A DNA stretch of 64,000 bases from Balanoglossus misakiensis (Eukaryota > Animalia > Hemichordata), in contig CM082577.2 of assembly GCA_040954595.2 (NCBI GenBank), forward strand, positions 19,256,303 through 19,320,302, in the 5' to 3' direction. The position numbers and the translations under genes were made by a program. Below are positions 1 to 35,512 of the stretch, piece after piece (position 1 is the stretch's first letter; every line of letters starts with the position of its first letter). Under the pieces are notes generated by a model. The model made no database searches. It was given only the letters and a program-made list of their open reading frames with translations, and had not been told where the DNA came from.

Positions 1-1822
1 TTAACATATGCAAATGAAGAAAGTACTTCAAACCATGTAGCCGTTAGAGTGGGCCCCGCTGACGGGTCGCGAAATAGGCCATTTTTTTACTCGATATTAT
101 AGAGCTGTTTTCAGGCGATGTGGATTATTTTAAGACAAAACCGTGAATTCACTTGAAGGTAGGTATACTGGATTGTTACTGAATGATTTTTTGGCAACTT
201 CTGTCGAGTAGTTTCTTTGTAATCACGAAATTTCTGACGACTGTGAAAAAACACATAGCGTTGACATCCTCTCGATTATTTTTAAGCTGACCGTTACACA
301 TGGATTTTACCACGAAATTTCAAACTTTTATCAAAATATAGACATCAAACTCCCTCTCTTTGAGTTTTCATTCACTTCCAAGCTTTGATAGTGACGATAT
401 GACCAGTTCAATTTTGTTTACCTTTCTTGTTTGCTTACCGCTCAACCTGTGAGCGCCATTTTGTTTACTTTTCAACCCGTGAGCGCCACTTCTTCTGCAA
501 AATGGCGGGAGAAGACAGCATGCATGTGTACGTATATACGCTGGCGCAGGCTTGATCCTGGGTTTTACCAGCTGCGTAGTTTTCCCTCCTCTCTCGTGCG
601 AAGAAATTTTGATTTCTGATATGTAATCCCGAGTTTTACTAAACCCTAACAATTATTTTATGAAGGTTTGCCCGTCAAGGAAACTCACTTTTTTTAATTT
701 TATTGTTCTTTCAGATTGATGAAGACTGATTTTTGTGGTGGTGGTGGTGTTGCAGTTGACTGTTTTATTTTAGCTGTCTGAGTTGACAATTTATTCTGTA
801 TTTTGTTGTATTTTTAACTCTTTATCCTGTATTTTGTAGTAGTATTTTGAACACTGTTTAATAAATAAATTACTATTATTATTATTTATCGACCCAATGC
901 AATGATGACAAATCGCTCGCCTTCAGACACAAATGTTGTATTTATTGCATATATCATCGGCGAATAAAGGGAAGTGGTTTCGACGTTACACTTGGCATTT
1001 TCGAAAAGTCTACTTATATCCCACGATGCGGAGAAAAAAATATATACAAAATACGTCAGCTGAGCTCCTCACGTACGGTAAACCTGGCATTCTGTGCATG
1101 GGTAATCAAATATTTGTTTGTAGCCCAATGTAGGCGAACGGCGTGGAGCACCCGGTCGCGGCACTCGTGCGATTGATCGATGTTGTGTCGAAATCAGGCC
1201 AGTAATTAAGTTAAAACTTGGCTGATATGTTACCTTAGAGTGTTATACACTATCCAGTAACTTTTACTTGACAAGTGTCTTTTAGAAACTGTTTTCCCCA
1301 CGATAAACGTGTCGTTTCACGAGCAACGCAACACTTCCGTATTTACAAGCCTAACATGGAGAGGTCAACGTAGGGCCTATACTTCCGGGTCATATCGTCG
1401 AACTACATCGATTATTTTTAAGCTGACCGTTACACAAGCATTTCGAGTTAATTTCTTTTCACGGATGTTGGGACCGATATTAGACCTATCTGTCACGAAA
1501 ACTTGGTTAACTTCCGAGGTCGTCTTCAAATGATTTTTGGCACGTTTGTGGACGTCTCTTCCGAGGTCACCAACATACCACCGAAAACACGCTAAAAACT
1601 ACTACTATTACCGACAGATTCTCATAAAATTTACGTCTGCAGTGCAAAATAGGAATCACTTTCGAAATTTATCGAGCTAGCATGGTATTTTATTGTACCA
1701 CGGAGTGTAAAAATCAAGTTGAAAATCACCTTGAAAACTGGCCTATTGCCGTCTGTTTGAAAATTAACGGTCGCTGGCTTGACGAACTTTCATATGCAAA
1801 TGAGCACCGTGCGATCTGACTG
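1..1822. mobile_element. Right part of a non-autonomous DNA transposon (ends ...GACTG, Academ-like) inserted in Gypsy pol; left end outside the window
   Basis: Gypsy pol-like coding (EDLFQKSCTNLSPGETDKLKELLNDYQDVF) starts abruptly after ...catatgcaaatgagcaccgtgcgatctgactg (1822). This end resembles the terminus catatgcaaattcactacccagtttctcgactg at 57449. An internal duplicated segment occurs at about 274-300 and 1409-1436. Confidence 0.55.
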
Positions 1823-3707
1823 TAGAGGACCTGTTCCAAAAATCATGTACAAATCTGAGTCCGGGGGAGACAGACAAACTCAAAGAGCTGCTGAATGATT
1901 ACCAGGACGTGTTTGCAGCCAATGAATTTGATCTTGGGAACTTTACCGCCCTTAGCCACCGCATTGACACTGGGGACGCGAGACCTGTCAAACAAAAGAT
2001 GCGCCGCACACCGCGTTGTTTCGCAGGCGAGGAAGAAACGCATTTGAAGAAAATGTTTGATGCAAAGGTCATTCGGCCCTCCGTATCGGAATGGGCATCC
2101 GCCCCTGTTCTAGTTCGCAAGCGCGACGGCAGCGTGCGTTGGTGCGTAGACTACCGCGCGTTAAACAACCAAACGGCTAAGGACGTGTTCCCTCTTCCGT
2201 TAATCGAAGACTGTATGGACACGCTGTCCGGAAACCGTTGGTTCTCCAAACTAGACGCAAATTCCGCCTATTGGCAGGTGAGGGTTGACCCCGCTGATTG
2301 TAAGAAAACTGCATTTGTCACCAAGTACGGGCTTTTTGAGTTTACTAGAATGCCCTTCGGGTTGTGCAATGCCCCAGCCACTTACTCACGGGTAATGAAT
2401 TTAGTGTTGCGGGGTTTGACCTGGGATGTCGTCCTCGCATTTCTGGACGACATTATGGTACTAGGGACCGATTTTGACCACCATCTACAGAACTTGCGCG
2501 GTGTTTTCCAGCGCATGCGTGACTATCAGCTCAAGTTAAAACCAAGGAAATGCGAATTGTTCTGCACGGAAGTGACCTTCCTTGGGCGCAGGGTAAAGCA
2601 AAATTCCATCGAGTTGGAGGCAGACTCCATCCGCGCGATTGCAGAATGGCCCCGCCCCACAAAGACAAGGGAAGTCGAGAGTTTCCTAGGGCTTGCGAAT
2701 TACCATCGTTCGTTCATTAAGGGATTTGCAGAAATGGCCGCCCCCCTATACGCAATCACAGGGAAACAGGCATACGCATGGGGACCCGAACAGCAAAGCG
2801 CATTCGAAGAAATTAAGACCGCGCTAATGTCGCCACCAGTGCTGACTTTGCCCAACGACGAAGACCCATTCATATTAGATACCGATGCGTCAAACCATGC
2901 GCTTGGGGCAGAATTAATTCAGGTGCAGGGTGGTAGGGAACGGGTAGTGGCGTATGGCAGCGTAAGCATGACCCCTGAACAGCGCCGGTATTGCACCACT
3001 AGACAAGAACTGTTGGCCGTAATTAGGTTTACCCGCAATATCGCCATTATTTGCTAGGGAAGCGTTTCCTACTAAGGACTGACCACAGCAGTTTGACTTG
3101 GCTACTTAGTTTCAAGGAACCCCAGGGACAGTTAGCCCGTTGGCTCGAAGAGCTGAGTCAATATGACATGAAGGTAGAGCACCGCCCGGGGAAGAAACAT
3201 GTAAACGCCGACGCACTCTCACGGGTGCAAGACCCCAAGCAATGTTCCAATTTCAGCCATGGGATAAGCCCCCAAGACCTTCATTGTGGGGGTTGTAACT
3301 ACTGTGAGAAGGCCCACTTGAGATGGAGTGCTTTCATAGAGGAGGTAGACGATGTGGTCCCCTTAGCTAGGGCAATAGGGCAGGGGAAGACGGTCAGCGA
3401 CACACCAGGGGCAGAATCTCCGCCGGGGGAAACCTTATCCCCAGGCCGGGACACACCAATTCCCCAGGGGTGTGACTGTCCACCTTGGCCTTGGGACCCA
3501 GGCGAGTCATACGAGGGCCGAAATGTGCATGAGGGAAATTGGTTGGAAGCCCCCCAATCCCACATTGATATCGAACAGGGTTGGGATAGAGAACAGGGGA
3601 AGCCCAAAGCATATGTAGTAACGCGTGCCAGTGAAAAGCAGGAGGGCACAGCTATCGTCGGGGTAAGCATGGCCGAATTCCGGGAAATGCAACAAAAAGA
3701 CCCAGAC
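1823..3707 (+). pseudogene. pol: Gypsy pol: reverse transcriptase and RNase H, with a 1-nt frameshift near 3037
   Basis: Motifs SEWASAPVLVRKRDGSVRWCVDYRALN, FTRMPFGLCNAPATY, AFLDDI, FILDTDAS, TTRQELLAV, then after the frameshift LRTDHSSLTWL and HVNADALSR. Adding one base at acccgc^aatat restores FTRQYRHYLLGKRF. Confidence 0.95.
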
Positions 3708-4699
3708 CAGGCAAGGCAAAGGGGGGGTAATTACAGCGGTGACATCAAAGAGATCTATTTGAATGTGAACGTCACTGAGTGGCAGTTACGGCCGGTTGGA
3801 AAAATTTTCAAACGGAGATTTTCGGTACTTCAAGTGATCGTAGTGCATCCATTTTTCTAAGACGTGTATGAAACACCACAGTCAATGATAGGATGATTTT
3901 TCGTGAAGTTTTAACGACGCGTTCCCGAGAAAGACAGTTTCGGTATGTTGGTTTAAATTGTGGTCCCTGACTCACGGAAAAGATTTCTTGTCTTGAAAAA
4001 AATTGGGTAGGTTAGGAAGATATTGAACTAAGTTACCGTGAATTTATAATAGTGTGAGCCGCTCCGTTGTGGAGTAATGACGGTGTAAAAATTGCCTTCG
4101 CCATCGACGAGTACAGCCGTGTTTGCCATATGTGTATGCATTGAAGTAGGTCAACGCATGTTAACCCATGACGTAATGGCTTCCTTTTCAACGCGTCGTT
4201 AACTCTCATTAGCATATTACATACGGAGTCTATACACTATTCACGCTGACTGACTTCTCAGGACTGACCTATGGCACTGTAAATTGTGGTCCTTGACCCA
4301 CGGCATGGATATATTCATGTCAAAATTATGAATAGAGGAGTTTAATAATGTTTCTAAAACCTGAGGGGGTTAATTTTTGTGTGGGTATGGCAGATATTTT
4401 TTTTTTGATTTTTTAACTTCAAGGACACTTTGAATTTCGTGATCACAATTTTGTAAGTGGAATTAAAGAAATTCTTCTCGATAAAACTTTATGAAAAATC
4501 ACATGTAGTACATTCATAGTACCAGTAATGTGCCTGGGGTGAAATAATTGTCAGAAATGGGTTGCAAGTTACTGAACTTTCGTTCTGAAAAAAGTTGAAA
4601 AACTGTATGCAAATGAGGAATTCAAACGTTACTGGCCAGTTCAAGTGTTTGCATTGCATAATCCCCTGCTGTTTAATTACCCCCCCTTTGCCCTGCCTG
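3708..4699. mobile_element. 992-bp non-autonomous TIR element (CAG...CTG, 3-bp TSD GAC; Academ-like) inserted in Gypsy pol
   Basis: TIR caggcaaggcaaagggggggtaatta / taattaccccccctttgccctgcctg. GAC at 3705-3707 and 4700-4702. Removing the element and one GAC restores the reading QQKDPD-LSDLLHW in frame. Confidence 0.9.
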
Positions 4700-6193
4700 G
4701 ACCTTAGCGATTTATTGCATTGGGTTGAGACAGGGAAAGAACCCCTAGAAGGGAAACTTATGCTATCAAGCCCAGCCGCCAAGAATTATTGGGTAAACCG
4801 GGAATTGTTCTGTGTGATTGATGGAGTCTTATGGAGGGAGGAAATTGACTCAGGCCACAAATTATTTGTAGTCCCCCGAGACATGAAGGAGGAAGTCATA
4901 GACTTAAATCACACTATCCCATCTGCCGGACATCAAGGTGCCCAACGGACCTTGTCCAGAATAAAACAGAAGTACGTCTGGTACAAAATGCATGAGGAAG
5001 TGAAGGATTTTGTGGCCACATGCCCAGAGTGTAATCAGAACAAGAAAACCCACCGGTATGGCAGGGCAGAAATGAAAAGTTTCCATGCAGGCTCCCCCAT
5101 GGAGCGAGTCCATCTGGACTTTCTCGGGCCCCTCCCCAAGACACAAGGGGGAAACGAATACATCCTGATGATGGTCGATCAGTTCTCAAAATGGGTGGAG
5201 TGTATCCCACTACCGTCACAAACGGCGGAGGTCACCGCCCAGGCAGCAGTGAATGAATTCTTTGCGCGCTTCGGGTACCCTTTCGAGATCTTTACCGACC
5301 AGGGGCGTAATTTCGAGAGCCAACTTTTCGTAGCGATTTGCGAGCTGTTGCGTATTCACAAATGCAGAACGACCCCTTATAGACCGTCCGCGAATGGCCA
5401 GGCAGAACGAAATAACCGTACGCTCATGGACGCAGTGCGTTGCTTCATCGGAAATCAGCGCGAGTGGGATGTACACCTACCCCAGATAGCAGGGGCAATG
5501 CGCGCATCAGTGAATCGCAGCACAGGGTACACGCCAAACCGTTTAATGTTGGGAAGGGAACTTAACTTGCCAGCAGATCTGGTGTTTGGGGTGACCACAG
5601 GGCAGGGGAAAGACAGCACTGACAAGTTTTCCAATGAAGGGGAAAGGGCCGAGGGGTATGTTAGGGAATTGGAGAGAGCAATCAGCACGGCCCATGAAAC
5701 CGCCCGTAATACCTTAAGGGCCACCCAGGAACGGATGAAAAGGGACTATGATTTGAGAACACACACCAAAGCTTATGGGGTGGGGGATTGTGTATACATT
5801 TTAGATACCGCCACCACAAAAGGGAAATGTCGCAAGCTCAGTCCCCCCTGGAAGGGCCCAGCCGTGATCATTGGGAAATTCTCCCCATACCTGTACAAAG
5901 TGAGGTTGAAAAGGGCAGAGATGACTGTGCACCATGACAGGATCAAACTATGCAGGGATCGGGTCTTACCCCAGTGGATCGTTAGGCACCAGGCAAACAT
6001 AGCCAACGACACGGGGGAAACCGAAAGCCCAGGGAATGACCAGTACTGCATTTGTCGGGGACCGAACGATGGCAGCCCAATGATCCAATGCGACAAGTGT
6101 TTTGACTGGTTCCATATGTCCTGTGTGGGAATTCAGTCAGGAAAGGGAAGCACGGGGGACTATTTCTGCCCCCAGTGCACTCAACAAGCCTAA
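4700..6193 (+). CDS. Gypsy integrase (HHCC zinc-binding region, DDE core, GPY/F-like motif) with C-terminal PHD finger; 3' part of the disrupted pol
   Basis: H-x6-H...CPEC; RVHLDFLGPLP, FTDQGRNF, NGQAERNNRTL; WKGP; then YCICRGPNDGSPMIQCDKCFDWFHMSCVGI...YFCPQC (C4HC3) and stop at 6191-6193. The first ~35 residues of the 4595 ORF come from the insertion. Confidence 0.93.
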   Translation, partial: DLSDLLHWVETGKEPLEGKLMLSSPAAKNYWVNRELFCVIDGVLWREEIDSGHKLFVVPRDMKEEVIDLNHTIPSAGHQGAQRTLSRIKQKYVWYKMHEEVKDFVATCPECNQNKKTHRYGRAEMKSFHAGSPMERVHLDFLGPLPKTQGGNEYILMMVDQFSKWVECIPLPSQTAEVTAQAAVNEFFARFGYPFEIFTDQGRNFESQLFVAICELLRIHKCRTTPYRPSANGQAERNNRTLMDAVRCFIGNQREWDVHLPQIAGAMRASVNRSTGYTPNRLMLGRELNLPADLVFGVTTGQGKDSTDKFSNEGERAEGYVRELERAISTAHETARNTLRATQERMKRDYDLRTHTKAYGVGDCVYILDTATTKGKCRKLSPPWKGPAVIIGKFSPYLYKVRLKRAEMTVHHDRIKLCRDRVLPQWIVRHQANIANDTGETESPGNDQYCICRGPNDGSPMIQCDKCFDWFHMSCVGIQSGKGSTGDYFCPQCTQQA

Positions 6194-6216
6194 CATGTTC
6201 TTTTTTATGTCCGCAG
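6189..6216 (+). promoter_or_regulatory. Candidate branch point and splice acceptor in front of ORF3
   Basis: cctaac (6189-6194), pyrimidine tract ttcttttttatgtccg, then CAG ending at 6216. Confidence 0.55.
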
Positions 6217-8639
6217 ACCCAGCCCCATTCAGTATGCCAAGACCCATGCCCAAGCTCACCATTGAGGATGTCCGGCGGGCCACTCAGGCACGCCGTCTCC
6301 TAGGCCCCAGAGAGGTCATCCACGGCATTATGATGGCCCCCAAGCGAGAAGCCCAAGAGGCACTCCTAGCCCAATATGCGGTGGCCAAATCCAAGGGAAA
6401 CTGGGGGTGGGTGTTTAATATCCAACGAGAAGCGGATGTTATGTTTCCAATCCCCTGGATCACACAAAACATGCCACACATAAACCCAGCTAAGGACCAC
6501 CAGCCCCCACGCCCCAAGAAGGCGGTGGCGATGCCGGAGGAGTATTCCCAGCGGGGTATGTGTAAGGACATCCGTTTACTGACGCAACCAGACTTACCCG
6601 TCCGACGCACCCTGGAAACCGACAGCGGAACCCAGGAAGTCGCATCCGGAGGGTGGAGTGCGCCCAGCTCATCGGGTCCACCGCCCAGCTCTGCGGGACC
6701 AGGGGTTTCCCCAGGTTCTCTGGAGCGGGGACAGGGCCAGACTGAGCGGGGAAGGGACTCCAGTCCTTATAGGAGAGAAGTTTCCATGGTCATGAGCCGA
6801 TCAGAAGAGAGGGAGGTGGAGGTGCCCATAGCGCCATACGAGCTCGGCGATAATCTCAGTGTCGGGGCACGGAGGCTCATCATCCGTACCATCACCTGCA
6901 GCGAGTTTCGGCAAACTACGGAAAGCCCAGGTGCTGAACCGGGGCATCCGCAGGCTGACGAGGCGATGGAAGTAACGGAGGAAACGGAAGAACCGCCCAG
7001 ACGGTTAGTCTTAAGACCAGCGGGGGATATACCAAGCCCGAGCCACCCTGAGTCCACGACAGCCACCACCAAGCGCAAGGAAGAAAAAAACAGTTCGCGC
7101 CAGCGCTGGAGATCTGCAAGCTCCCGCTCCCGAGTGTCGGCATCGGTGGAGAGACCGGAGAAGAGGCCATCGGAGAACGAGCCTTGGAGGCAACCCAAGA
7201 AAGCAAGCCCAGAGAGGCCACCTGGTCTCTCGGGGACAGTGGGAAAGCCTCCAGCAGCGGAAGCCCCAGCGGCACCGCGACCACAACCACGCGGGAAAAC
7301 CTCCTTCTGTCCGATTCCAGGAAAAGAATCAGTGTGCCCCATACCGGATTGCGGACATTCTTCAAAGTGGCTGAAGGAGCACGTTTATAGGCGCCACTTA
7401 CCATCATACATGCGGGGAGAGATCCGCAAAGCCGATCTGGACGCAATCGTCAGCTTGCTAGGGGGTTTGACCCAGCTTCTTGTGGGGACGGAACAACCCA
7501 TCGTCGCCCTTTTCCAATATTTCCTAACACACGGCCTCGGACGTTTTCCGACAACATCCAAGATTCTCCCGGAAGGTGAAGAGATTATGCGACGAATGTG
7601 CCACCGAATGGGATGGGAAGTACCCCGAAAGATACGGTTGTCGCCGCCCAACACACCCGCAGTGTTGATTCACTGGAGGGTTCTCCTCACGCTCCTTGGA
7701 GACCTGTCGCCGGAGGAACGGGAGACTATCCAGAAGTGGCCCAGAGGAAAGATGCCCCAAGCAAGCGCTGGCAGTCCAGACGTCCAACCCCGTGTGGCGT
7801 CACCGGCCGGGGGATTACCCCAGGCCATAGACGCCCATTTTCACCCGGACCGCATGAGAGCCCAGGCGTCCCGAAGTGAAGGAGCCACCACTTCCCGTGA
7901 ACTGTTGCAATTGTCGCCAGGGCGAGAGCCGGAAGTGCCAGTGGAAGTGGTGGGAGGGGTCGAGATTTATTGCGACCCCGAAGACTATCCAAATGTCCTG
8001 CTGAGGGAGCCGGGGTGGAAAATTGCGGTCGGACTTCACCCCAAAAAGGCCAAGAAAATGACAGAGGAGCTGTTGCAGCGGATCAAGGGGCTGGTAACCC
8101 ATCCTTTGGTAGCGGCTATGGGCGAGATAGGCCTGGACAGGACCGCACCAGTCCATGAATGGGGCCAGCAGGAGGAAGCCCTCCAACGCCTGTTGGAAGT
8201 GGCACCTGAAGACAAACCCATCGTACTACACATCAGGGGCGCTAGGAGAGATCCCCACGCCAGCGATGTACATGCCCTGGCCCTGATGCTGGTGTCTGAA
8301 ACCTGCCCTGCAACCCAACCAATCCAGCTGCACAACTTCGGGGGGGACCGGCGCACCTTAAATAGATGGACCCAGGCCTTCCAGAACTGCTACTTCAGTT
8401 TTTCTGCCAGCGTGGCCTGCTTTGACAGAACCCAAGCCCAAGCGCTGAGGGAAGTTCCCGAGGACCGAATCCTGTTGGAGACGGACGCCCCACATCTATC
8501 CCTGCGGGGGAGTCAGCGTTTCAACTCCCCTGTTTTTCTGGGTGAAGTGGCTCGGGAAGCAGCCCAGGTGCGAGGCGTGACAGCAGAAGAGCTGCTGGAG
8601 GTCGCGGCCAACAACACGAGACGCCTATTCCTGTTTTAA
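6195..8639 (+). CDS. Retrotransposon ORF3: low-complexity N-terminus, C2H2-like zinc finger, helical segment and C-terminal TatD-family (TATDN2-like) nuclease
   Basis: Uninterrupted frame from ATG 6195 (814 aa; next ATGs 6207, 6234). TatD motifs at about 7827-8636: IDAHFH, IYCDP, VGLHP, MGEIGLD, PIVLHIR, LHNFGG, RILLETDAP, NSP, NNTRRLF. Zinc finger CPIPDC-x9-H-x4-H at about 7335-7397. Confidence 0.9.
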   Translation: MFFFMSADPAPFSMPRPMPKLTIEDVRRATQARRLLGPREVIHGIMMAPKREAQEALLAQYAVAKSKGNWGWVFNIQREADVMFPIPWITQNMPHINPAKDHQPPRPKKAVAMPEEYSQRGMCKDIRLLTQPDLPVRRTLETDSGTQEVASGGWSAPSSSGPPPSSAGPGVSPGSLERGQGQTERGRDSSPYRREVSMVMSRSEEREVEVPIAPYELGDNLSVGARRLIIRTITCSEFRQTTESPGAEPGHPQADEAMEVTEETEEPPRRLVLRPAGDIPSPSHPESTTATTKRKEEKNSSRQRWRSASSRSRVSASVERPEKRPSENEPWRQPKKASPERPPGLSGTVGKPPAAEAPAAPRPQPRGKTSFCPIPGKESVCPIPDCGHSSKWLKEHVYRRHLPSYMRGEIRKADLDAIVSLLGGLTQLLVGTEQPIVALFQYFLTHGLGRFPTTSKILPEGEEIMRRMCHRMGWEVPRKIRLSPPNTPAVLIHWRVLLTLLGDLSPEERETIQKWPRGKMPQASAGSPDVQPRVASPAGGLPQAIDAHFHPDRMRAQASRSEGATTSRELLQLSPGREPEVPVEVVGGVEIYCDPEDYPNVLLREPGWKIAVGLHPKKAKKMTEELLQRIKGLVTHPLVAAMGEIGLDRTAPVHEWGQQEEALQRLLEVAPEDKPIVLHIRGARRDPHASDVHALALMLVSETCPATQPIQLHNFGGDRRTLNRWTQAFQNCYFSFSASVACFDRTQAQALREVPEDRILLETDAPHLSLRGSQRFNSPVFLGEVAREAAQVRGVTAEELLEVAANNTRRLFLF

Positions 8640-8753
8640 AGGAAGGCAAGGGGACTTTGGGGAATCTACTGTTTGGGATGGGGGTACCCGGGGTTTTACC
8701 AGAAAGGCCAAAAATAGGGGAAGGACGGGGACCACCTGGGGAATTTGTATCGA

Positions 8754-8985
8754 GAGGGAATTTTTGTCTAAAAGGGGAACAAAATCCAGCAAATGGACCA
8801 GTGGGGCATATCTTATAAAGCCCAGCTGGAGGGAATTTTTGTCTAAAAGGGGAACAAAATCCAGCAAATGGACCAGTGGGGCATATCTTATAAAGCCCAG
8901 CTGGAGGGAATTTTTGTCTAAAAGGGGAACAAAATCCAGAAAATGGACCAGTGGGGCATATCTTATAAAGCCCAGCTGGAGGGAA
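8754..8985 (+). repeat. 75-bp tandem repeat (3 near-identical copies plus partial) in the 3' untranslated region of Gypsy 1
   Basis: Unit gagggaatttttgtctaaaaggggaac...aaagcccagctg starts at 8754, 8829, 8904, 8979. A degenerate further piece lies at about 9007-9040. Confidence 0.95.
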
Positions 8986-9145
8986 AACAAAAGAAACAAA
9001 CCGGCCGACCAGTGGGGCATACCCAGTAAAGCCCAGCTGGACTTTCTATCTTTCGATTTTTGTTATTGTTGTGTTCAATGTTGTGTTATCCCCCGGTGTT
9101 TTGGGGGAAGAAGACGACGCCCTTCAAAAATATGGTGGGGAAGAG

Positions 9146-9325
9146 TGTTGTGAATCTACATCCGTGATGACGTCACTGACCCCACTCACCCCTTGGGCGG
9201 ATATAGTTCGACCCTTCTTCTACGAGACCAGCTTTCAGCCACACGCTTTTATCTGAGCTCCGAGAGATTCTACAAGTTATTCAGTCTACCTACTACGCAG
9301 TATCCTTTTACCTTTATCTAAGGTG
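9146..9325 (+). repeat. Truncated 3' LTR of Gypsy 1, preceded by polypurine tract
   Basis: tatggtggggaagag|TGTTGTGAATC. No matching ...CA end is seen before unrelated minus-strand protease sequence begins near 9327. No second LTR is in the window for comparison. Confidence 0.6.
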
Positions 9326-9326
9326 A

Positions 9327-10960
9327 GCATATCGGCTTTCGCAACAACAGGTTCAACACTAGCATTGAGAACTCTAACTGGTAAATGGGTAGATCTCGTG
9401 GTCACTAAAGCTTTACATGTCATAATGCCTTGCTCCAGCAATTTACCCCCTTGTACTGGTAACACAACCACTGTAAGACAAATATCCGGGGAAGACTTAT
9501 CTGTTCTCCCCACCCAGGTCGAATGAATTCTCATTCCCTGTGCACACCCACTTCCAACCTTTGCTGGTCCCGCAAACCAAGGTTCACTGGCGATGGGAGT
9601 CCTACACATTTTAGCCGGAATAATCATTTCATGTCCAGGGGGAACAAAAACGTCTCCTGCTACCTTTACACGACAAATGAACGGTTTCATTGTACCAGTG
9701 TTACTACATTTCAACCGTTCCTCTTTAAGTTTAATGACTAGCTCCCCTGTCCCTGTATCAATAATACACCCAATTGAATGTAGAAAGCTTATACCAATAA
9801 TGCCATCAGAGCATAGTTCAGCTACTAATACCGGAGAGATAGCCCTAGCCCCACCCAAGCAGATATCTAGGTTAACAACTCCACTAACCATAAGTGGTGT
9901 ACCATCAGCTTGGTTCACCTTTACATTTATTGGTTGCAATGCACCGTGAACTCCCACTGAAATTTTCCTATACATTTCTTCTGATATCACCATATCAGTT
10001 GCTCCCGTATCAACCAGAAAATTCCCCGATACACCACCGGCAGAGGCCTGTATGTACATACTTCTGACACTTGTATTGTTATTAGCCGGTTGAATTTCCC
10101 TAATATTTCCAGTAGTCTGCACACACTGATCAACTGCCTCCCCTTTGGGTCCATACTGGTTGGCTGAGGGTTGACCCGACTTCCGCTCAGCCCCTAATCG
10201 TTTCCGGAAACCTTGGGTCGGGTGGGACAGTCCCGCTTCAGATGCCCTGATTCATTACAGTGCCAACACAAACGGCCACCAGAGGGCGCACCACTCTGAG
10301 CTTGTCCAGATGTTTTTTTTATACTAGTGTTGACAACACGGGCCTTAACCTTTTGGTCAAGTTCAGCTAATTTGTCGGTGATCAAATCAACTTCTCACTT
10401 GTTTACCCAACCCTTTATTGGTTTCAGGGCCACGGCTTTTCTCTAATAACTGAACATTCTCTTCCCAAACTGTAGCCTGTATAACGTCGTCAAGTGTGGC
10501 ACTGGGGGTCCTACCCGCTTCATTAACACGCCTACGCATAGCAGAATCAGTCAATGAATTGAAAAATGCGTCTATACATAGCCGTTCGAATATGTGACCT
10601 TTGGCATCAGGGTACCCAAGTGTTACCATTTCCCTGATATCCTGTCCAAGCCCACTTAGAGACTCGCTGGGCTTGAGTACTCTTTGTCTTAATTTTAAAC
10701 GATAGGTGTCTTCCTGTCTCCCAAAACCAAATCTATGATCTAGTAGTTTGCACAGTTTCTGGTATGTCAATGACATTCTGTCAATTGATGTTAACAGCCG
10801 CTGGGCTGCCCCATACAACATGGCTTGGAGATACTTCAACTTTTCAACCTCTCTCCACTCATTTATTTCCGCATAAATTTCAAAGTGTGCGAAATAATCA
10901 TGCCAAGCAAGCGATCCATCATACTTATCAGGCTTAAGTATGGACCCGTGTTTACCTGTA
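9327..10960 (-). pseudogene. Decayed gag-protease of Gypsy 2
   Basis: ORFs 10387-10839, 10194-10385 and 9286-10122 are consecutive pieces broken by a stop or frameshift at about 10387; the gag N-terminus is missing. Confidence 0.85.
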
Positions 10961-11374: not shown

Positions 11375-11394
11375 ATCCCAACCGCTGCACACCA
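11375..11394 (-). promoter_or_regulatory. Primer-binding site (degenerate tRNA-Leu type) of Gypsy 2
   Basis: Minus strand reads caaca-t-TGGTGTGCAGCGGTTGGGAT, close to the tRNA-Leu complement TGGTGGCAGCGGTGGGAT. Confidence 0.7.
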
Positions 11395-11395
11395 A

Positions 11396-12064
11396 TGTTG
11401 TAGTTTTCTCAGCGTAGCTAGATTTCTCGTCGTGGACCCGGTAATGGTAGCATCGCCCACAATGAAATCCTCCCGTACACTTCGACTGGACTACCAACCA
11501 CCTCGACAGGGTCGGATCGCTTGGAATAGTTGTCAGTGAACACCCTCTCACATGTACATTGACGCAGCGCAACACCAGCCGGAATGGTTAACAAGAACAA
11601 CGGATTTATTCGTATTTCGACTGTGTTACAAACTTTCACGTCTGCCCAGTTCGGAGGTGGAAACCCAAGAGAGCGAGAATGAGGTGAATCCTCAGCAAAA
11701 GTAGCCCACCCCAACTATTACCCAATCAGCACGAATGTGAAGTTCACGTGATATAGTCCGGCCAATCACAGTTCCAGCCTACTTCCTGATAGGCTCAAGC
11801 AGCGGTAACTTTGCAAGGTTTTCCATGACATTATTGTGATATATAGGTGAGAAATATATTGGAAAATGTCTTCATTACAAAAATATGTCGTGAAATTATT
11901 GACTAGCAAGAACCATGTGTATATGTATGGCCAAGAGGAAATTTTTAACTTCTAGTTCTGAACATTAACGTTATTGCGCAGGCTACTGTAACCACATTCA
12001 AATAATACATACAATTTTCTGTTGCACCAGTGCTTTGACCTTACAGTAATTAATTACTACTACA
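11396..12064 (-). repeat. 5' LTR of Gypsy 2 (about 669 bp)
   Basis: Bounded by tgttgtagt (11396) and actactaca (12064), an imperfect inverted pair. AATAAA on the minus strand near 11605. Directly abuts the PBS. Confidence 0.65.
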
Positions 12065-20218: not shown

Positions 20219-22576
20219 TAGCTCTGCGTGGCAGGGCTGTGTTGTTAATGTTACGGCGAGCCCTCCACCCACAGCCCTGCAAAGCTCCATAGACAAAACT
20301 GGCGAAACTCAGCGGATTTGTATCGGAAGGGTTTCCTTACCAAAAACTGCCGATTTCGAACTCAAAACGTGCGTCGATCTTCGTCACTGGCCTCGATTAC
20401 CCCAGTCGCTAGCAATTTGAGCTAAACTCTACCTGATCATAGACCCTAGAGAAAGAAGGACGTGCAACTGCGGCAAAGATCAAAGGGTTTGGGGATTATC
20501 AGTATGATGATGTTCTTTTGCATATAATTAACACCTAGGACAGTGGCAGGCGTGAATCTCCACTTTGGCATGCGTCAATGTCATTACATGTAGCATATCA
20601 TTAACATGCACCAAAAAATAAAAGCAACTCTGTGATGTGCAACAGTAACCAAAAACTGGCACTTCTATATTTCAGCAGCCACTGCGTTTTTTTCTAAAAT
20701 TCAAAAAGTATTATGTTGTCTGTGCTATTTATTATGGTTTGGTGTTCGTCTGTCGGTTGAACGGTCATTTCTAGTGCCACAAGCTTCATTTAAAAATTGT
20801 AAACAAATCATCCATGTTTTTTGCATGTTCGACTGGGCACTCATATATATAACTTTCTACTAACTGAACGCTAAAAATAGTTTTGCGGCAAACTTTCGCG
20901 CAAAGGCTCCTGGGTAAACTCATTGGTCAGCGAGATTCAAAATGGCGGGGTTCTTAGGAGTCTTCTCGCATAAACATCGAAAATGGGGCTTAACGCAAGC
21001 AATCAGGTCATAGACCCTAGAGAAAGAAGGACGCGCAACTCCAGGTTTTTCTTGAAACGATGTTCTTTTGCATACATTATTTCCGGATAATACCCAATAA
21101 TCCAATTTGCAAATAAACTACATATAAACTAACGCAAAGTCTCGCGTTTTGCGAGAAGTTATCACAAACACCTCACAACATCTCGCAAAAGACGAGAAAA
21201 CTGCAAAGTGGTTGAACTGCAGCGTTCATTTATGGAACACATCTGGACGAGTTAAACACGAATTTGGCACTTCTGAGTCTGACAGCGTCCAAAACAAGCA
21301 TATTTTGTCTAACAGTCCGGGTATTTGACAAGGCTGTGAGCTAACCGTACCTATAGCTCTGCGTACAGGTCTGTGTGTTCCCGGCGTTACACGGCCTCCA
21401 CCCACAGCCCTGCAAGGCGCCATAGAAAAAACTGGTGCTTCTGCGGTCCGGATCCGGACCGCAGCTTTTTCGGCCAAAATTCGATTTTATCGAAGCAAAA
21501 TCCTTTCCCTGTCTACTTCTGCCTCCTAACCGACTCCAAATATGATGCGATTAACTTGTCCTAACGTCCGAACCACTCGCATTTGATTCATTTTTGTGTG
21601 TTTACATGTTGAGATCGCCATATTAAATATAAGGCTTACAGCGAGTTTATCTCCATGGGTAAACAAAAAAGTTTTAGAAAGCGAGCGGTGGAGGCCGTGT
21701 AACGCCGGGAACACACAGACCTGTACGCAGAGCTAACCGTACCTAGGGTTTCCTGCCATCGTCAACCATGAAAAACCAAGATGGCGGCCATAGCGCACAC
21801 GTGAAAATCCACCCAGTTTGTTTACAAATTGTTTTCGTGAAATCTGTTTTATTGTTCACTCAATGCGAAATAAAATGCCCCTAAACCACAATTTTTGTTT
21901 CAATGCTTCACGCAAACATAAAATTATTACGAAAAGTGTCAACATTACCAAGATATATGAGTGCCCAGTCGAACATGCAAAAAACATGGATGATTTGTTT
22001 ACAATTTTTAAATGAAGCTTGTGGCACTAGAAATGACCGTTCAACCGACAGACGAACACCAAACCATAATAAATAGCACAGACAACGTAATACTTTTTGA
22101 ATTTTAGAAAAAAACGCAGTGGCTGCTGAAATATAGGAGTGCCAGTTTTTGGTTACTGTTGCACATCACAGAGTTGCTTTTATTTTTTGGTGCATGTTAA
22201 TGATATGCTACATGTAATGACATTGACGCGTGCCAAAGTGGAGATTCACGCCTGCCACTGTCCTAGGTGTTAATTATATGCAAAAGAACATCATCATACT
22301 GATAATCCCCAAACCCTTTGATCTTTGCCGCAGTTGCACGTCCTTCTTTCTCTAGGGTCTATGATCAGGTAGAGTTTAGCTCAAATTGCTAGCGACTGGG
22401 GTAATCGAGGCCAGTGACGAAGATCGACGCACGTTTTGAGTTCGAAATCGGCAGTTTTTGGTAAGGAAACCCTTCCGATACAAATCCGCTGAGTTTCGCC
22501 AGTTTTGTCTATGGAGCTTTGCAGGGCTGTGGGTGGAGGGCTCGCCGTAACAACATAGCCCTGCCATGCAGAGCTA
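20219..22576. mobile_element. AcademH-like non-autonomous element with ~630-bp TIRs and 9-bp TSD
   Basis: TAG...CTA termini. About 20219-20850 is the reverse complement of about 21955-22576. TSD gaatgaccc at 20210-20218 and 22577-22585. Confidence 0.88.
21354..21735. mobile_element. 382-bp MITE (TAG...CTA) with 10-bp TSD
   Basis: TIR tagctctgcgtacaggtctgtgtgttcccggcgttacacggcctccacc. TSD accgtaccta at 21344-21353 and 21736-21745. Confidence 0.92.
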
Positions 22577-24904
22577 GAATGACCCTAGGCCTGAGATCGC
22601 ACCATGGCCGGCAATCTCGGTATTCACAGATACTTTTAAGCGTAATTCTGATATAATTAATAGGTTTAGGGTCCGGGTATAGGGATAAACTGTGTTACCG
22701 CCATCTTGAAAATTTGCAGTGCATTGTGGGTAAAATTAGTTCCGGTTGGGGGGGAGTAGCGTCTACAATCTATCCAATTTTCCAGCGGTTTTGTCAGATT
22801 TTCTTCAAGTTACGTTAGTAGTAGTAGTTACATGAAAACTGAACGGTCCCTAATTCCTATATTCTGAATCAAGTGAATGCAATGTAGACGGCGAAAGGAC
22901 GTGACAAGACTCGAATCTGAATCAGAATATAAGTTTAGTGTTGGATGTGAATCGTGAATCCAAGTTCACCGCTGAATCTTGGGCCATGGAACGTGAAACG
23001 TGAATCTTGAATTAGGCTAACCCTCTGAAAATGCTGAGACCACGGTTATACCCTAGGAGATAGGTGCCGTTAATCAGAATTTTTGGTTTACAAGGAAGGT
23101 TTGAGAAGTCCATTCTATGTAAAAAATGGTGCTGATTCCAAAAATGTCAGTCTTATTGACCCCACTCAAGACAAAATTGCCATTTTGGCCATTTTTAACC
23201 CAAAAATGGTCTTTTTTAGAAAACACTAAAAACACACTGTTTTCGTCACATTCTGAGATCTGATGACATATGATATGCTTATTCTATGTAAAAATTGGTG
23301 AATATTACGAAAAAAGTAGTCCGATTGACCCAAAACAACACAAAATTGCCTTTTTGACCATTTTTTGCCCAAAAAACGTCATTTTTAGAAAAAATTTAAA
23401 ACACACGGGTTTCGTCATAATAATTGATCTGGTGATATATGGAAAGTCAATTCTATGTTAAAAGTGGTGACTTTAAAAAATAAAGCAGTCTTTTTGACCT
23501 CAATCAATACAAAAATGCCATTTTTGGCCACTTTTTGAGGTCAAAAAAGGTCATTTTTACAAAAAAACTAAAAACAAATTGTGTTCTTCATATTCAGAGA
23601 TCATTGGATATATGAAATGTCCATTCTATGTAAAAAATGGTGCTGATTCCAGAAATAGCAGTCTAATTGATCCTACTCAAGAAAAAATGCCATTTTTGCC
23701 ACTTTTTGCCCCAAAAACGTCATTTTCAGAAAACGCTCAAAATTTATATATTTTCTTCTTTTTTCGGAGATCTGATAATGTATTATATGCCCACCCTATG
23801 TAAAATTTGGTGATTATTCCAAAAAAGCAGATTTATTGACCCATCCTAATGCAAAAATGCCCTTTTGGAAAGTTTTTGCCCAAAAAGGCCATTTTTAGAA
23901 AAAAAATTTAAAACAAACTTTTCTTCATAAAGCTCAGAGATCATGTGATATATGAAATGTTCATCCTATGTAAAAAAAATGGTGCTGATTCCAGAAATAG
24001 CAGTCTTATTGATCCTACTCAAGAAAAAAATGCCATTTTGCCACTTTTTGCCCCAAAAACGTCATTTTCAGAAAACACTCAAAATGTATATATTTTCTTC
24101 ACTTTCAGAGATCTGATAATGTATTATATGCCCACTATATGTGAAAAATTTCCAAAAAAGCAGTTTTATTGATGCCACTCAAGATAAAAGTGCCTTTTTG
24201 GAAAGTTTTTGCCCAAAAACTGTCATTTCTAGAAAATACGAAAATATGCCATTTTCTTCCCATTGGTGATCTAATGATATATAAAAGTAGTGACATTAAA
24301 AAAAACTCACTCTTACTGACCCCACAGAGGGGAAAAATACCATTTTGGCCTCTTTGGGTAACTGTTAGAAAAAAAAAATACAAACTTATTCCTTCATATT
24401 CAGAGCCCTTGTGATGTATGTAAATTCGTTTTTGTTTTGTTTTTTGTGTGTGCAAAAAATACGCTGATACCAGCACAACGGTCTTATTGAGACACCCCGC
24501 TCAGTACAAAATTGCCATTTAGCCATCTTTTGGCCAACAATAGTCATTTTCAGAAAACGAATATAATTGATGTGTCTGCCTTTTGAGTTCTGATTTTGTA
24601 TATGCATATTTAAAACGTCATAACCATATATCAATTAAATTGATGATATTGAAAGACAGAGTTGCCACAATTTGGCACATTTAGCGCAAAACTGAACTCA
24701 ACAATAAGACGATCCATGTACACGCACTGTCTACTATAAGTCGATTATGCGTGGTGTGAAATATTTAGGTTCAGATATGCCAGCTCGAGAGAGATTGTTG
24801 AAATTTATTCTCTTCAATCTGAATACAAAATCGGAAATTATATTATTATTTATATCATGATACCTCCGTCATACTGATTGGACAGGAGTGCAACCCAACG
24901 ATGC

Positions 24905-25222
24905 TAGAATTAAGCAATAAAACACCCCCAGCCATGGTATACCACGAGATTTTGACCAGTTCACGACATATACGCACGAGCGATAGCGAGTGCGTATATG
25001 GAGTTGAACTGGTCAAAATCGAGTGGTATACCATAGCTGGGGGTGTTTTATTGCTATTATATTATGCCAGTATATTGAAACTTTGCATAAAACATTTTAA
25101 AAAGGCATTTTCTTTGACTATGATATATGACTGTGGTATATGGCTAATATATCACGGTCACGTGTCGTGTCTCGACCAATCAAATAGCGTGATTTACACC
25201 ATCAATATACTGGTATGATATA
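24905..25222 (+). mobile_element. Hairpin-ended non-autonomous element (tentatively Crypton-like)
   Basis: ~145-nt palindrome centred on cgagcgatagcgag, followed by a segment (about 25058-25079) inverted at the far end (about 25202-25221). Confidence 0.7.
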
Positions 25223-26051
25223 ATACTCAATAGAGCACTGCTAAAACTGGCCCCTGAACTAGCACGCAGCAGGAAAAATGTGGGCTTAAACCAAATAAAC
25301 ATAATAAAAACACTTAAATTCCTTGACGTTTTAATTTGGAACTGCTGTATGCCTGTCTTTTGTCATCTGTATCATGTTTGGAGCTTGGTCCCGGGCGGCG
25401 TGTTTACATTCATCGACGCGAGTTTTGTTCAATTCGTAACTTCTTTTCCTCTCGACGCTGTTTCATCATCATTATGAGTTCAACTTGGGCTAATTTTGCA
25501 AAAACTCCAAATACAAACATTTTTTCGGTACAAAATGGCTAAAAGGATAAATTTTTCTTGAGTAGATCTTTTTTTGGCTACAAATAGCCAAAAAGGCAAT
25601 TTTGACTAGAGTGGGGCCAACCAGACTGCCGTTTTTGGGATAGTCACCAAATTTTACACAGAATGGACTTTTCATACATGATCAGATCTCTGAATATGAA
25701 GAAAACAATTTGTCTTTAGTTTGCTTGTTTTTAATGAACTATTTTGACCAAAAAAGTGGCCGAAATTTCAATTGAATAGGGTAAGTAAGACTTCCGTTTT
25801 TGGAACAGTAACCACGTTTCAATATAGAATGGGCTTTTATTTATAATAAGATCACCGAAAGTGAAGAAAAGAGAATGCTATTAATATATTCTTAAAAATA
25901 ACAATTTTGTGCAAAACTTAGCCAAAAAGGCGATTTCATCATGGTTGAGGTCATTAAGACTGCATTTCTGGAAACAACACCTATTTTACAATACATGTAC
26001 TTTTCACACACCATAGAATCTCCAAATAATAAGAAAACAGTTTGTTTTTAA

Positions 26052-26550
26052 AGGCACGTAAGCTGTAACTTTTGGGATAATTTTCATAATTTTTGTTTCA
26101 CACTGCACTACCATTAGTCCATGCAGATGAAGGCAGTGAACTATTCACAAGCATTAAAAACCCTAAATATGAGTGCATATGCAAGTTTTAACCAGATAAA
26201 TAATAAAGCTTTGCCGCAAGCGATTATGGCCGCCACCGTGGGAAAATGAAAGAAACAATGAAAATGTCGCATTTCCGGTTGTGAAACTTCACAAACAAAA
26301 CATGATCTCATCCACTTGAGCTCATGGAAGGAAATGTACACCACTGAGACATCAGATTTTCATTTTTCATTGCAATATTGTACTTTTTTAAAAATTTCAG
26401 GAATTTTCGTTTTTCTTTAATTTTTGGCCATTTTGTCATAAATAAGTGCTGAGCTTGATATATTATCATGGCATTTAATAGATATAATTAAGAGCATATA
26501 TGAGATTATTTAAAACATTGATTTTTTATCCAGTTGCAGCTTACGTGCCT
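26052..26550. mobile_element. Kolobok-like 499-bp element with TTAA TSD, copy 1
   Basis: ttaa|aggcacgtaagctg...cagcttacgtgcct|ttaa. Nearly identical copy at 43743-44241. Confidence 0.88.
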
Positions 26551-28335
26551 TTAATGATTTTCGAAACGTGGCTTTTTGGGCACTGTTTTCTTGAGTGTCG
26601 CCAGTAAAACTTTTTTTTGGAATTTTTTTCACATAGAGTGGGTATATAATACATCATCATCTCCAAAAGTGAAGAAAATATAAAAGTTTTGGGTGTTTTC
26701 TAGAAATGACACTTTTGGGGCAAAAACTTGCCAAAAAGGCACTTTTATCTTGAGTGGCATCAATAAAACTGCTTTTTTGGAAATTTTTCACATATAGTGG
26801 GCATATAATACATCATCAGATCTCCGAAAGTGAAGAAAATATATAAATTTTGAGTGTTTTCTAAAAATGACGTTTTAGGGGCAAAAAGTGGCAAAAATGA
26901 CATTTTTTCTTGAGTAGGATCAATAAGACTGCTATTTCTGGAATCAGCACCATTTTTTACATAGGATGAACATTTCATATATCACATGATCTCTGAGCTT
27001 TATGAAGAAAAGTTTGTTTTTAATTTTTTTTCTAAAAATGGCCTTTTTGGGCAAAAACTTTCCAAAAGGGCATTTTTGCATTGGGTTGGGTCAATAAATC
27101 TGCTTTTTTTGGAATAATCACCAAATTTTACATAGGCTGGGCATATAATACATTATCAGATCTCCGAAAAAAGAAGAAAATATATAAATTTTGAGCGTTT
27201 TCTGAAAATGACGTTTTTGGGGCAAAAAGTGGCAAAAATGGCATTTTTTCTTGAGTAGGGTCAATAAGACTGCTATTTCTGGAATCAGCACCATTTTTTA
27301 CATAGAATGGACATTTCATATATCCAATGATCTCTGAATATGAAGAACACAATTTGTTTTTAGTTTTTTTGTAAAAATGACCTTTTTTGACCTCAAAAAG
27401 TGGCCAAAAATGGCATTTTTGTATTGATTGAGGCCAAAAAGACTGCTTTATTTTTTAAAGTCACCATTTTTAACATAGAATTGACTTTCCATATATCACC
27501 AGATCAATCATTATGAAGAAAACCATGTGTTTTAAATTTTTTCTAAAAATGACGTTTTTTGGGCAAAAAATGGTCAAAAAGGCAATTTTATGTTGTTTGG
27601 GTCAATCGGACTACTTTTTTCGTAATATTCACCAAATTTTACATAGAATAAGCATATCATATGTCATCAGATCTCAGAATGTGACGAAAACAGTGTGTTT
27701 TTAGTGTTTTCTAAAAAAGACCATTTTGGGTTAAAAATGGCCAAAATGGCAATTTTGTCTTGAGTGGGGTCAATAAGACTGACTTTTTTGGAATCAGCAC
27801 CATTTTTTACATAGAATGGACTTCTCAAACCTTCCTTACCAAAAATTCTGATTAACGGCACCTAGCTCCTGGACTATTATTACTAGTAACCCTGCTGAGA
27901 CTTACCACGTAGCGAGCTGGGATTGGGTTGGTCGAAAATATAACAGTAATCCTGCTCCCGGATAATGTTAGCAGCGTTGTAACCCCATATCGACGGACAA
28001 ATGTACTCCTTGCAGCTGAAAATGACAGTTTAATCACTCGGACACAAAGTCCACCGCCATTTTGTCTCGACGAGACTCTTGCAATAATGTACCACGTGAC
28101 AAAAGTTTGAGTCACCTGACTTTAGCGAATGGCTGAAAAACATAGTCGCATTTGTGTACGCTCAGAAAAGTACTACGGGTCACAATGTTTACGTTCATCA
28201 CGCAACATGCTTGTAATGTAACAGATCGTTAACGTATAAACCGGAAGTGATGTTGACCTTCGATTGTTTGATCAACACAACAAACGTAAACGTTTTGGCA
28301 AAGGATGTAATTGACCGTTCAATCGTGAACCAGTA

Positions 28336-31686: not shown

Positions 31687-31866
31687 TCGATTTGGTGTAA
31701 TTTCAAGCCACTAAATCGCAATCGAACGATAACTCACGAAGCCTAACGACACAGCGGTGCGTTTCAGAAGACTCCATCGTTAGTAAGTGAAGCAAATAGT
31801 GATAAAATACGAATCACTGCATCGACTGAAAAGCCAGACAGTCACGTGCGCATTGAATGAACAAAC

Positions 31867-34800: not shown

Positions 34801-34968
34801 TACAGAGATGAGATTACTGTGCAAAATGGTGTTCTATACAGAGGTTCCCGTGTCATCATTCCCAAAGCAATGCGTCCAGAGATGCTAGCCAGAGTGCATT
34901 CAAGCCACTTGGGTGTTGGTTCGTGTCTACGCAAAGCCCGAGACACTATCTACTGGCCGCACATGAAT
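31867..34968 (+). CDS. Gag-Pol polyprotein of Gypsy 3 (gag, two zinc knuckles, protease, RT, RNase H, start of integrase), cut by an insertion at 34969
   Basis: CRYCGGKH...CPAYGETCKLCKKKNHYARVC; LDSGAT; WLRMPFGI, IVDDIL; IQCDAS, YAQIEKECLA, SDHKPL; HSSHLG. Confidence 0.95.
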
Positions 34969-35512
34969 TAGAGGTTATAAACGGCTAGCGAGGGTATTTG
35001 GTTGCGGATATAAGACCTCTCAGGTGAAAATTAGCATATTTGGCGGGAAATAATCACCGAGCGAAGCGAGGTGATTATTTCACCCAAATATGCTAATTTT
35101 CACCTGAGAGGTCTTATATCCGTACCAAATACCCGAGCGCACCGTTTATAACCTCATTATAATATGCTTTTGCTTGATAAAGATAAACAATTTCATTTTT
35201 TCAAATCCGTTGTTTGGTTGGGGATAAATCGTGCTAGTTCTAGGGCCTCGTCGCGCACTGTTCCAGAACGCGCAAGCTGAGCTTGTGCAAACGCGTTCTA
35301 GAATTTCTAAAGTCACGCGATTTTATGCCACCGCCAATAGAATGTGGAAAGTGCGTTCTATTCAGGCGCGTTCTCTTCTACGTGTTCTATTTCGGTTACT
35401 TTTTAAAAAACTATTCACTGTTCAGGGTCCAGGTACTAGGTCTTCTTGTCGAGAATATAAACCCCGGCTCCAGCCAATCAGCGAGCTAGATTCACACCAA
35501 GCATATTATAAT
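34969..35512 (+). mobile_element. 544-bp hairpin-ended element (tentatively Crypton-like) inserted in the Gypsy 3 integrase
   Basis: Palindrome 34971-35155 centred on cgagcgaagcgag. 14-bp inverted repeat at 35156-35169 and 35499-35512. Removal restores YWPHMN-DEIRDTI in frame. Confidence 0.9.

Follow-up and report, generated by a model that had tools for sequence, protein, structure and literature searches.

An open reading frame for a TatD-type nuclease, lying between pol and the 3' LTR of a Gypsy retrotransposon, raises a question: does the nuclease belong to the element and, if so, what would the element gain from it? We addressed this question for one such frame, ORF3, in a 64,000-nucleotide stretch of Balanoglossus misakiensis DNA (hereafter, the window). 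A preliminary description of this DNA had proposed that a captured nuclease had become a dedicated accessory gene of the retroelement. It had named three observations that would speak against this proposal: absence of ORF3 from other copies of the family, a true 3' LTR located before position 6195, and loss of catalytic residues with a dN/dS near 1 across copies.

The features of the window copy are collected in Table 1. A Pfam search placed reverse transcriptase (RT), RNase H and an integrase with a PHD finger (40 bits vs. a cut-off of 24) upstream of ORF3, which is the Ty3/Gypsy order; the complete order gag-PR-RT-RH-IN is present in two relatives, L003 and L089. Downstream of ORF3, a polypurine tract (PPT) precedes an LTR with TG...CA ends, as in LTR retrotransposons. 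In contigs from the same organism (three runs of one sample, possibly the source of the window itself), unrelated flanks are joined exactly at 9146, the pattern expected of solo or 5' LTRs. A neighbouring minus-strand element does not match its own other copies until 9347, and the terminal ACAACA closes at 9349; thus, the LTR probably spans 9146–9349. A 3' LTR cut off at 9286 was also considered and dropped. The intron-less 814-codon frame of the preliminary description, opening 2 nt past the pol stop at 6193 and lying inside the element before the PPT and the LTR at 9146, was borne out.

Table 1. Features of the retrotransposon copy in the window (positions are counted from the first nucleotide of the window).
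Feature	Position	Strand	Basis
pol, 5' part: RT core (1999–3000) and RNase H; frameshift near 3035–3057	1823–3704	+	Pfam; left edge marked by loose ends at 1823
High-copy insertion of 995 bp in pol, bounded by terminal inverted repeats; foreign to the retrotransposon	3705–4699		Contig joint
pol, 3' part: integrase (H2C2, rve), PHD finger (6047–6178), stop (6191–6193)	4700–6193	+	Pfam
ORF3: open for 814 codons from 6195 (probable start ATG 6234, giving 801); lacks a transmembrane segment	6195–8639	+	ORF list, hydropathy
Predicted splice acceptor: pyrimidine tract, AG 6215–6216 (alternative AG 6231–6232), then ATG 6234	6198–6232	+	Sequence; same layout in relatives
Small conserved N-terminal domain of ORF3, without a Pfam match	6258–6464	+	Comparison with relatives
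Middle domain of ORF3, family-specific: CPxxxC...H...H Zn-finger-like motif and helical bundle	7329–7739	+	Relatives; model pLDDT 94.5
TatD nuclease domain, class II (HxH): H548, H550, E644, H679, H713, E762, D764	7830–8630	+	Pfam, fold, alignment
3' UTR with about three 75-bp tandem repeats	8640–9133	+	Sequence
PPT	9134–9145	+	Sequence
3' LTR, TGTTGT...ACAACA, probably complete; splice donor 9320–9328	9146–9349	+	Flank joints; right end inferred

The window copy itself is broken: its RNase H is frameshifted, its pol carries a 995-bp insertion, and gag and the 5' LTR are missing from the 64-kb window. The depth of the inserted element is about 30–100 times that of pol, and the joint 3704/4700 occurs without the insert in runs X1 and X2; that is, other copies are uninterrupted. 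Among the relatives, the LTR is followed by a primer-binding site (PBS), though their contigs are collapsed or permuted. An apparent 1187-bp LTR pair in L089 proved to be a collapsed contig overlap that comprises 3' UTR, PPT, an LTR of about 340 bp and the PBS, so no date was taken from it. The window copy is nested among other repeats, and a dead, nested copy is what one might meet if ORF3 were a one-off retrocopy, a passenger gene or an assembly artefact. However, two run contigs (4 and 17 differences) span the junction of integrase and ORF3, and the link therefore exists in diverged copies too.

What does ORF3 encode? Its layout consists of an N-terminal domain, a long low-complexity linker, a middle domain and TatD. 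The match to TatD_DNase (PF01026) reached 128 bits (cut-off 27; E = 4e-37); the only other Pfam match to ORF3 was a weak one to Amidohydro_2, and no DEDDy (RNase D-like) domain was found. The motifs expected in the last part of the protein are indeed kept (DAHFH at 546, YCDP at 592, GEIGLD at 643, LHIR at 678, LHNF at 712 and ETDAP at 762), and all seven active-site residues are present. By sequence, ORF3 matches 12 solved TatD-family chains, the closest being YcfH/TatD; for a model of residues 378–814 (mean pLDDT 92.5), the top 15 fold matches all belong to the TatD family. The C-terminal part of ORF3 is a class II TatD_DNase domain with a TIM-barrel fold and a predicted nuclease activity. 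The middle domain gave no Pfam match over the cut-off and no PDB sequence match, and in fold comparisons the best results were E = 1.1 in Foldseek and Z = 3.4 in VIA (rmsd 3.8, 81 aligned); Atlas matches stayed below 0.9, with none for a full-length relative. As modelled, it is a confidently folding unit without a Pfam family or a clear structural match, which does not in itself prove a new fold. The highest 19-residue hydropathy in ORF3 was 1.37, and no transmembrane segment was seen, contrary to what an env-type fusion glycoprotein would have.

We then asked how widely ORF3 occurs among related elements. A metagenome search with ORF3 returned 80 loci, mostly bacterial TatDs, and in two of them (L001 and L003) a PHD-integrase lies directly upstream of TatD. 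IMG/VR scans with ORF3 or the integrase gave four TatD loci or no match, and the first scan of genome contigs gave no match. An integrase-only search, with a profile from three TatD-bearing integrases and meant to avoid circularity, found 15 loci, ten of which have the middle domain and TatD downstream. The remaining five end too early: L090 stops 164 nt past the integrase, L097 and L099 stop within it, the distant L098 ends after 403 nt, and L095 ends after 1061 nt yet shows the ORF3 N-terminal domain. These records are bacterial genome bins, the contigs in question presumably being animal host DNA; most of the context loci come from two related bins (G001 and G002) and represent many element families from few hosts. 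G001 holds at least 118 contigs with an integrase match (26 further matches are spread over four genomes), 23 with TatD and 15 with both. Where the integrase match reaches the end of the PHD finger, TatD is present in 14 of 15 G001 contigs; the one that lacks it, L170, is not an integrase.

A 41-row tree of integrases places the window in a clade of 16 with 100/100 support. Thirteen members have a whole TatD, L003 has a frameshifted one and two are truncated; TatD is thus present in 14/16. Outside the clade it occurs in 1/25 rows (L096), a comparison for which only the best-scoring outgroup contigs were taken and in which 9 of the 24 TatD-less rows reach at least 2.2 kb past the integrase. On the L096 branch, TatD occurs without a PHD finger, and there is no match to a helix-hairpin-helix (HhH). 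L172, close to L096, shows no ORF3 in 1388 nt, and the sister L171 has terminal repeats without ORF3; this pattern reflects either losses of ORF3 or a second gain, and ORF3 is therefore not needed by all kin. Within the clade, Gag starts with an HhH in eight of the nine frames listed (vs. 0/4 outgroup frames), and the RNase H acidic triad D-E-D is kept. The same gene, position and domain order recur in many elements of 39–80% integrase identity.

The nuclease also bears the marks of maintenance. Among 25 TatD domains from the loci (one of them broken), H548, H550, H679, H713, E762 and D764 are kept in 25/25 and E644 in 24/25. Strict motif patterns each match 102–114 of the 129 full domains of the protein search; long homologues that have lost catalytic residues exist (P0106, P0048 and P0076). 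For TatD, dN/dS was 0.14 in two unsaturated pairs (dS 0.13 and 0.22) and 0.09–0.17 in six near-saturated pairs, and pN was below pS in 300/300 pairs. Of the TatD-domain changes listed within the species of the window, the 33 with the best support (there are 128 further rows) comprise 23 synonymous and 10 non-synonymous ones, a synonymous share of 25–32% being expected. TatD and integrase distances correlate (rho = 0.68, p = 1e-4, 14 elements), as descent within the element predicts; the faster-evolving of the two is TatD, with a median identity of 36% vs. 55% for integrase. There is hardly any doubt that ORF3 lies inside the element, occurs clade-wide with intact catalytic residues and is under purifying selection. 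None of the three contrary observations named at the outset was made, and the proposal of a dedicated accessory gene is supported. The notion of a one-off retrocopy, passenger gene or artefact is refuted by the clade-wide presence, the selection and the integrase tree; we assign it a negligible probability.

When 1.84 billion cluster representatives were searched with a profile, 1151 homologous proteins were returned at E ≤ 1e-30, of which the best 150 score at least 279 bits. Among those 150, the middle domain is present in 95 of the 99 proteins with at least 170 residues ahead of TatD. The nearest named homologue is from the hemichordate Ptychodera flava (49% identity over the 445 residues searched). 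Other named members or cluster mates come from sea urchins (Diadema antillarum and Lytechinus variegatus), bivalves (Argopecten irradians, Pecten maximus, Ostrea edulis, Saccostrea cucullata and Dreissena polymorpha) and an abalone (Haliotis rubra). Members of the family are annotated as bacterial TatD (from contaminated genome bins), as "uncharacterized", as "mucin-like" or as "TATDN2" host genes. We infer that the named homologues sit in elements too, and the lineage is likely a widespread one of marine invertebrates.

How might ORF3 be expressed? The first 13 codons from 6195 (MFFFMS...) are a pyrimidine tract and an AG, and in relatives the pol stop is followed by a pyrimidine tract, then a YAG and, shortly after it, an ATG. 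The real start is probably ATG 6234, giving 801 aa; the frame 6195–8639 is open as first described, with a start that was probably placed 13 codons too early. A fixed rule found an acceptor and ATG at 14/21 loci vs. 11/184 control windows, although its first match in the window is ATG 6195, AG 6216 (or 6232) and ATG 6234 having been chosen by eye. A splice donor (at least 7/9 consensus positions, in the last 80 nt) was present in 7/7 LTR ends—all of the delimitable ones, with boundaries set by eye—vs. 13.6% of 4749 background windows, and the window LTR donor fits 8/9 positions. Because the LTRs carry a donor, ORF3 is likely a separately spliced gene. Fusion of ORF3 to RT or integrase was seen in none of the best 150 of the 1151 homologous proteins. 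Very probably, then, ORF3 would be expressed from a spliced subgenomic RNA that uses the 5' LTR donor and the acceptor just past pol. The LTR donors may also serve introns of the gag leader.

The YCDP motif had been noted as reminiscent of the animal TATDN2 subfamily. In a tree of 37 element-type and 24 bacterial-type TatD domains with no host TATDN2 among them, all 37 fall on one side of a branch with a support of 99, and the sole protein labelled TATDN2 (P0193) lies within the element clade. An [FY][CS][DENH]P motif occurs in 32/37 element domains and an FPN-type motif in 27/37, vs. 0/24 bacterial domains in both cases. Human TATDN2 has SDFCDP and YFPNMS-V-GFT in the machine-read PDF text of the Fig. 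S1B alignment (PMC10085689); in that text "FCDP" occurs once, and the FCDP-type and FPN motifs are not in the other seven rows. So far as the available parts of the papers go, ORF3 and animal TATDN2 share the class II HxH site, the E...ETD acidic triad and the FCDP-type motif (PMC10711561, PMC10085689, PMC12709183), along with an FPN-x-x-[FV]-G motif and a long disordered region before the nuclease. They differ in that ORF3 is intron-less, multicopy and inside an LTR element, has an activity that is predicted, and carries two domains not known from TATDN2. The bacterial YcfH/TatD proteins (PDB 1yix, 2gzx, 6l25 and 1j6o) have the same fold and metal ligands, but the 99-supported branch separates them from the element type. 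The resemblance to TATDN2 stands as an agreement of motifs, from which descent is read; as the tree is without host TATDN2, capture from TATDN2 is likely rather than demonstrated.

What could a TATDN2-like enzyme do for a retrotransposon? In the accessible passages of PMC10711561, TATDN2 degrades the RNA of R-loops, with a disordered N-terminus required for binding; its action on plain RNA:DNA duplexes is minimal and that on DNA slight, and it cleaves hairpin RNA both exo- and endonucleolytically. In fish, tatdn2 keeps R-loops and germ-cell death in check (PMC12709183, in part). In 37/84 proteins, an NLS-like K[KR]x[KR] motif occurs in the 60 residues that precede the Zn finger, compared with 15.9 expected by shuffling and 1/53 in a control linker; the strict motif is absent from these 60 residues of the window ORF3 and likewise from 47/84 relatives. 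From these motifs, a nuclear location of the protein seems reasonably likely. The separate message, the lack of a Pol fusion, the intact RNase H and the NLS-like motifs together favour a nuclear role over in-particle proofreading.

We tentatively propose, at a little under even confidence, a spliced, nuclear, TATDN2-like enzyme that clears R-loop RNA at the element's own copies. The 5' LTR donor would join the acceptor past pol to yield the subgenomic RNA and, from it, ORF3 protein, which would enter the nucleus and act outside the particle. There, the middle domain would aim the TatD nuclease, and in germ cells TatD would degrade the RNA strand of R-loops that form where copies of the element are transcribed; this clearance may sustain the supply of full-length RNA and the survival of the germ cell that carries the element. 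RNase H keeps its D-E-D in the clade, so TatD would add to RNase H rather than replace it. The R-loop activity of human TATDN2 and the germ-cell role in fish favour R-loop clearance by analogy; as the substrate and benefit of ORF3 it is plausible, though short of probable. The G-skew of integrase DNA was not higher in TatD-bearing elements (0.078 vs. 0.066 in TatD-less ones, p = 0.86), and nothing therefore shows that TatD-bearing elements are more R-loop prone. More GGG runs were seen in the same comparison, confounded with GC. Substrates vary among TatD classes, and class membership therefore does not reveal RNA specificity. Against the R-loop reading, the host presumably has its own TATDN2.

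Counter-silencing and cDNA processing are close rivals of R-loop clearance. In the former, a nuclear ORF3 would be an RNase that breaks down antisense RNA, dsRNA or small guide RNAs, or else the scaffold of nascent RNA on which Piwi/RNAi silencing depends; the separate message and NLS-like motifs fit this equally, and the faster evolution of TatD would suit it. The 3' ends of piRNAs are methylated and resist 3' exonucleases, which speaks against such a role, as do the low dN/dS, unlike an arms race, and the lack of any sign of small-RNA binding. With the hairpin cutting by TATDN2 (PMC10711561, in part) and the unrelated DEDDy 3'-5' exonucleases in the same slot of rotifer elements (PMC5408684, in part) on its side, counter-silencing remains, in our estimation, rather improbable.

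Alternatively, ORF3 might process cDNA in the particle or pre-integration complex, where, in concert with the Gag HhH and the integrase PHD, it would clear away residual primers or RNA, trim 3' ends or cleave AP sites. The available text of PMC10085689 gives TatD enzymes both 3'-5' exonuclease and AP endonuclease activity; the DNA-binding-type HhH of Gag and the tracking of integrase distances by ORF3 distances point the same way, whereas the minimal action of TATDN2 on plain RNA:DNA duplexes and its low activity on DNA (PMC10711561, in part) point the other. ORF3 lies outside Gag-Pol and therefore has no built-in route into the particle; the intact RNase H, and an L096 branch that has TatD without PHD or an HhH match, also argue against this reading, which we consider unlikely.

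Host TREX1 clears retroviral cDNA, avoiding innate nucleic-acid sensing. ORF3 could clean up surplus cytoplasmic cDNA in the same manner, and TatD proteins typically act as 3' exonucleases on ssDNA (PMC10085689, in part). The enrichment of NLS-like motifs and the TATDN2-like motifs, TATDN2 having little DNase activity (PMC10711561, in part), make this very improbable, and the enzyme would threaten the element's own cDNA.

Returning to R-loop clearance, the most complete account we can offer, and a more doubtful one, is of an old Gypsy clade of hemichordates, echinoderms and molluscs that would be defined by three additions, an HhH-tipped Gag, a PHD-tipped integrase and a spliced, TATDN2-derived nuclease fused to a previously undescribed Zn-binding domain, and that may bring its own R-loop resolvase into the germ-cell nucleus. 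If true, a retroelement would manage the RNA-DNA hybrids of its own loci, and many invertebrate sequences that public annotation calls "TatD/TATDN2-like genes" would in fact belong to this element. The finding bears on annotation, as family members are filed under bacterial TatD or host-gene names. To our knowledge, fixed accessory enzymes are rare in LTR retrotransposons and mark a life-cycle-limiting step. The retention of TatD and its active site across a multi-phylum clade, with an unrelated 3'-5' exonuclease in the same slot in rotifers, suggests a recurring nuclease need unmet by gag-pol, and hundreds of natural ORF3 variants could be used to test it.

Like the env of errantiviruses and retroviruses, ORF3 is a third frame between pol and the PPT with a predicted spliced subgenomic message; unlike env, it has no transmembrane segment and would be an enzyme, not a fusion protein (PMC13524379, in part). 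"TatD" and "PHD" have no occurrences in the main text of the errantivirus paper (PMC13524379), nor has "TatD" in that of the rotifer paper (PMC5408684). The TatD passages available in PMC5408686 and PMC6962438 are unrelated, and the available part of PMC6431247 is without mention. We found no description of a TatD-bearing retroelement in a literature search that left Repbase, subscription journals and bioRxiv supplements uncovered; library entries may exist. The closest precedent, in the available sections of PMC5408684, is the DEDDy ORF3 of the bdelloid rotifer elements Juno and Vesta: the same slot and the same broad chemistry with a different fold. Both sets of elements are of Ty3/Gypsy type, and in each ORF3 is not an env but a 3'-5' exonuclease that is, to all appearances, catalytically intact; the rotifer frames are typically spliced, according to that paper. 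TatD is a TIM-barrel, an unrelated fold to DEDDy, and its ORF3 has extra N-terminal and Zn-finger/helical domains; it is clade-wide and co-diverges with pol over several phyla, whereas the rotifer ORF3s are family-specific. A Gypsy element with an enzymatic, non-env ORF3 is thus of a known kind, of which one with TatD as that enzyme would be a new form.

In the TatD clade, i.e. the Ty3/Gypsy elements whose ORF3 carries a TatD nuclease, Gag proteins begin with a ComEA-type helix-hairpin-helix motif (loci L085, L089, L090, L091, L092, L093, L159 and L160); Pfam returned an HHH_3 or HHH match for all six of those scanned, four of them above a cut-off. The leader upstream of Gag is long and AT-rich in these elements and contains signals resembling those of introns.

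A second, deeper branch of TatD-bearing ORF3s comprises L096, L137, L146 and L165. Here, VFP replaces CDP, and ORF3 is shorter (about 500 aa). L096 lacks the PHD finger at the integrase end, and L172, a relative of this branch, has no ORF3. At L170, an open frame of 1075 aa (2-3226) starts with a PHD finger; beyond it, Pfam detected nothing else, neither an integrase core nor TatD.

Contigs assembled from sequencing runs of the same organism contained high-depth, internally deleted derivatives of the TatD element. These retain remnants of TatD and of the 3' end (window 7996-8208 and 8989-9153), with deletion joints at 8048/8165 and 8208/8989, and they probably constitute a non-autonomous subfamily.

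Other repeats adjoin, interrupt or lie apart from the TatD element. The minus-strand LTR element breaks off where it abuts the 3' LTR of the TatD element, and it was probably the target of the latter's insertion. The 995-bp element has terminal inverted repeats of ~22 bp and a flanking repeat of 3-4 bp. Farther away, the pol of the plus-strand LTR element is split near 34971-35228, and a search of the 297-aa frame against Pfam at E 0.01 gave no match.

Other repeats in the window
Feature	Position	Strand	Details
995-bp element	3705-4699		very high copy number; within pol of TatD element
Second, distinct LTR element	9350-~11879	-	LTR ~11396-11879 (by eye), PBS ~11377-11394, gag, protease
Perfect inverted repeat pair, 600 bp, and ~170-bp repeat arrays	20249-22552 and 23092-27886		arrays in both orientations
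Unrelated gag-pol LTR element	31861-36592	+	RT, RNase H, integrase
297-aa frame	37471-38364	-	like non-LTR retrotransposon ORF2 tail (by eye)

Many Gypsy contigs were found inside four genome bins filed as bacterial (G001-G004), with 141 integrase matches in G001. Because these contigs sit in such bins, ORF3s of host retrotransposons are filed as bacterial "TatD family hydrolase".

Three long homologues (P0106, P0048 and P0076) retain the ORF3 middle domain, but catalytic residues of their TatD domain have been lost. In P0048, which clusters with an Ostrea edulis protein, the middle domain is present twice; the cluster of P0076 is labeled mucin-17-like, from Lytechinus variegatus. All three are possibly domesticated or pseudo-enzyme forms.
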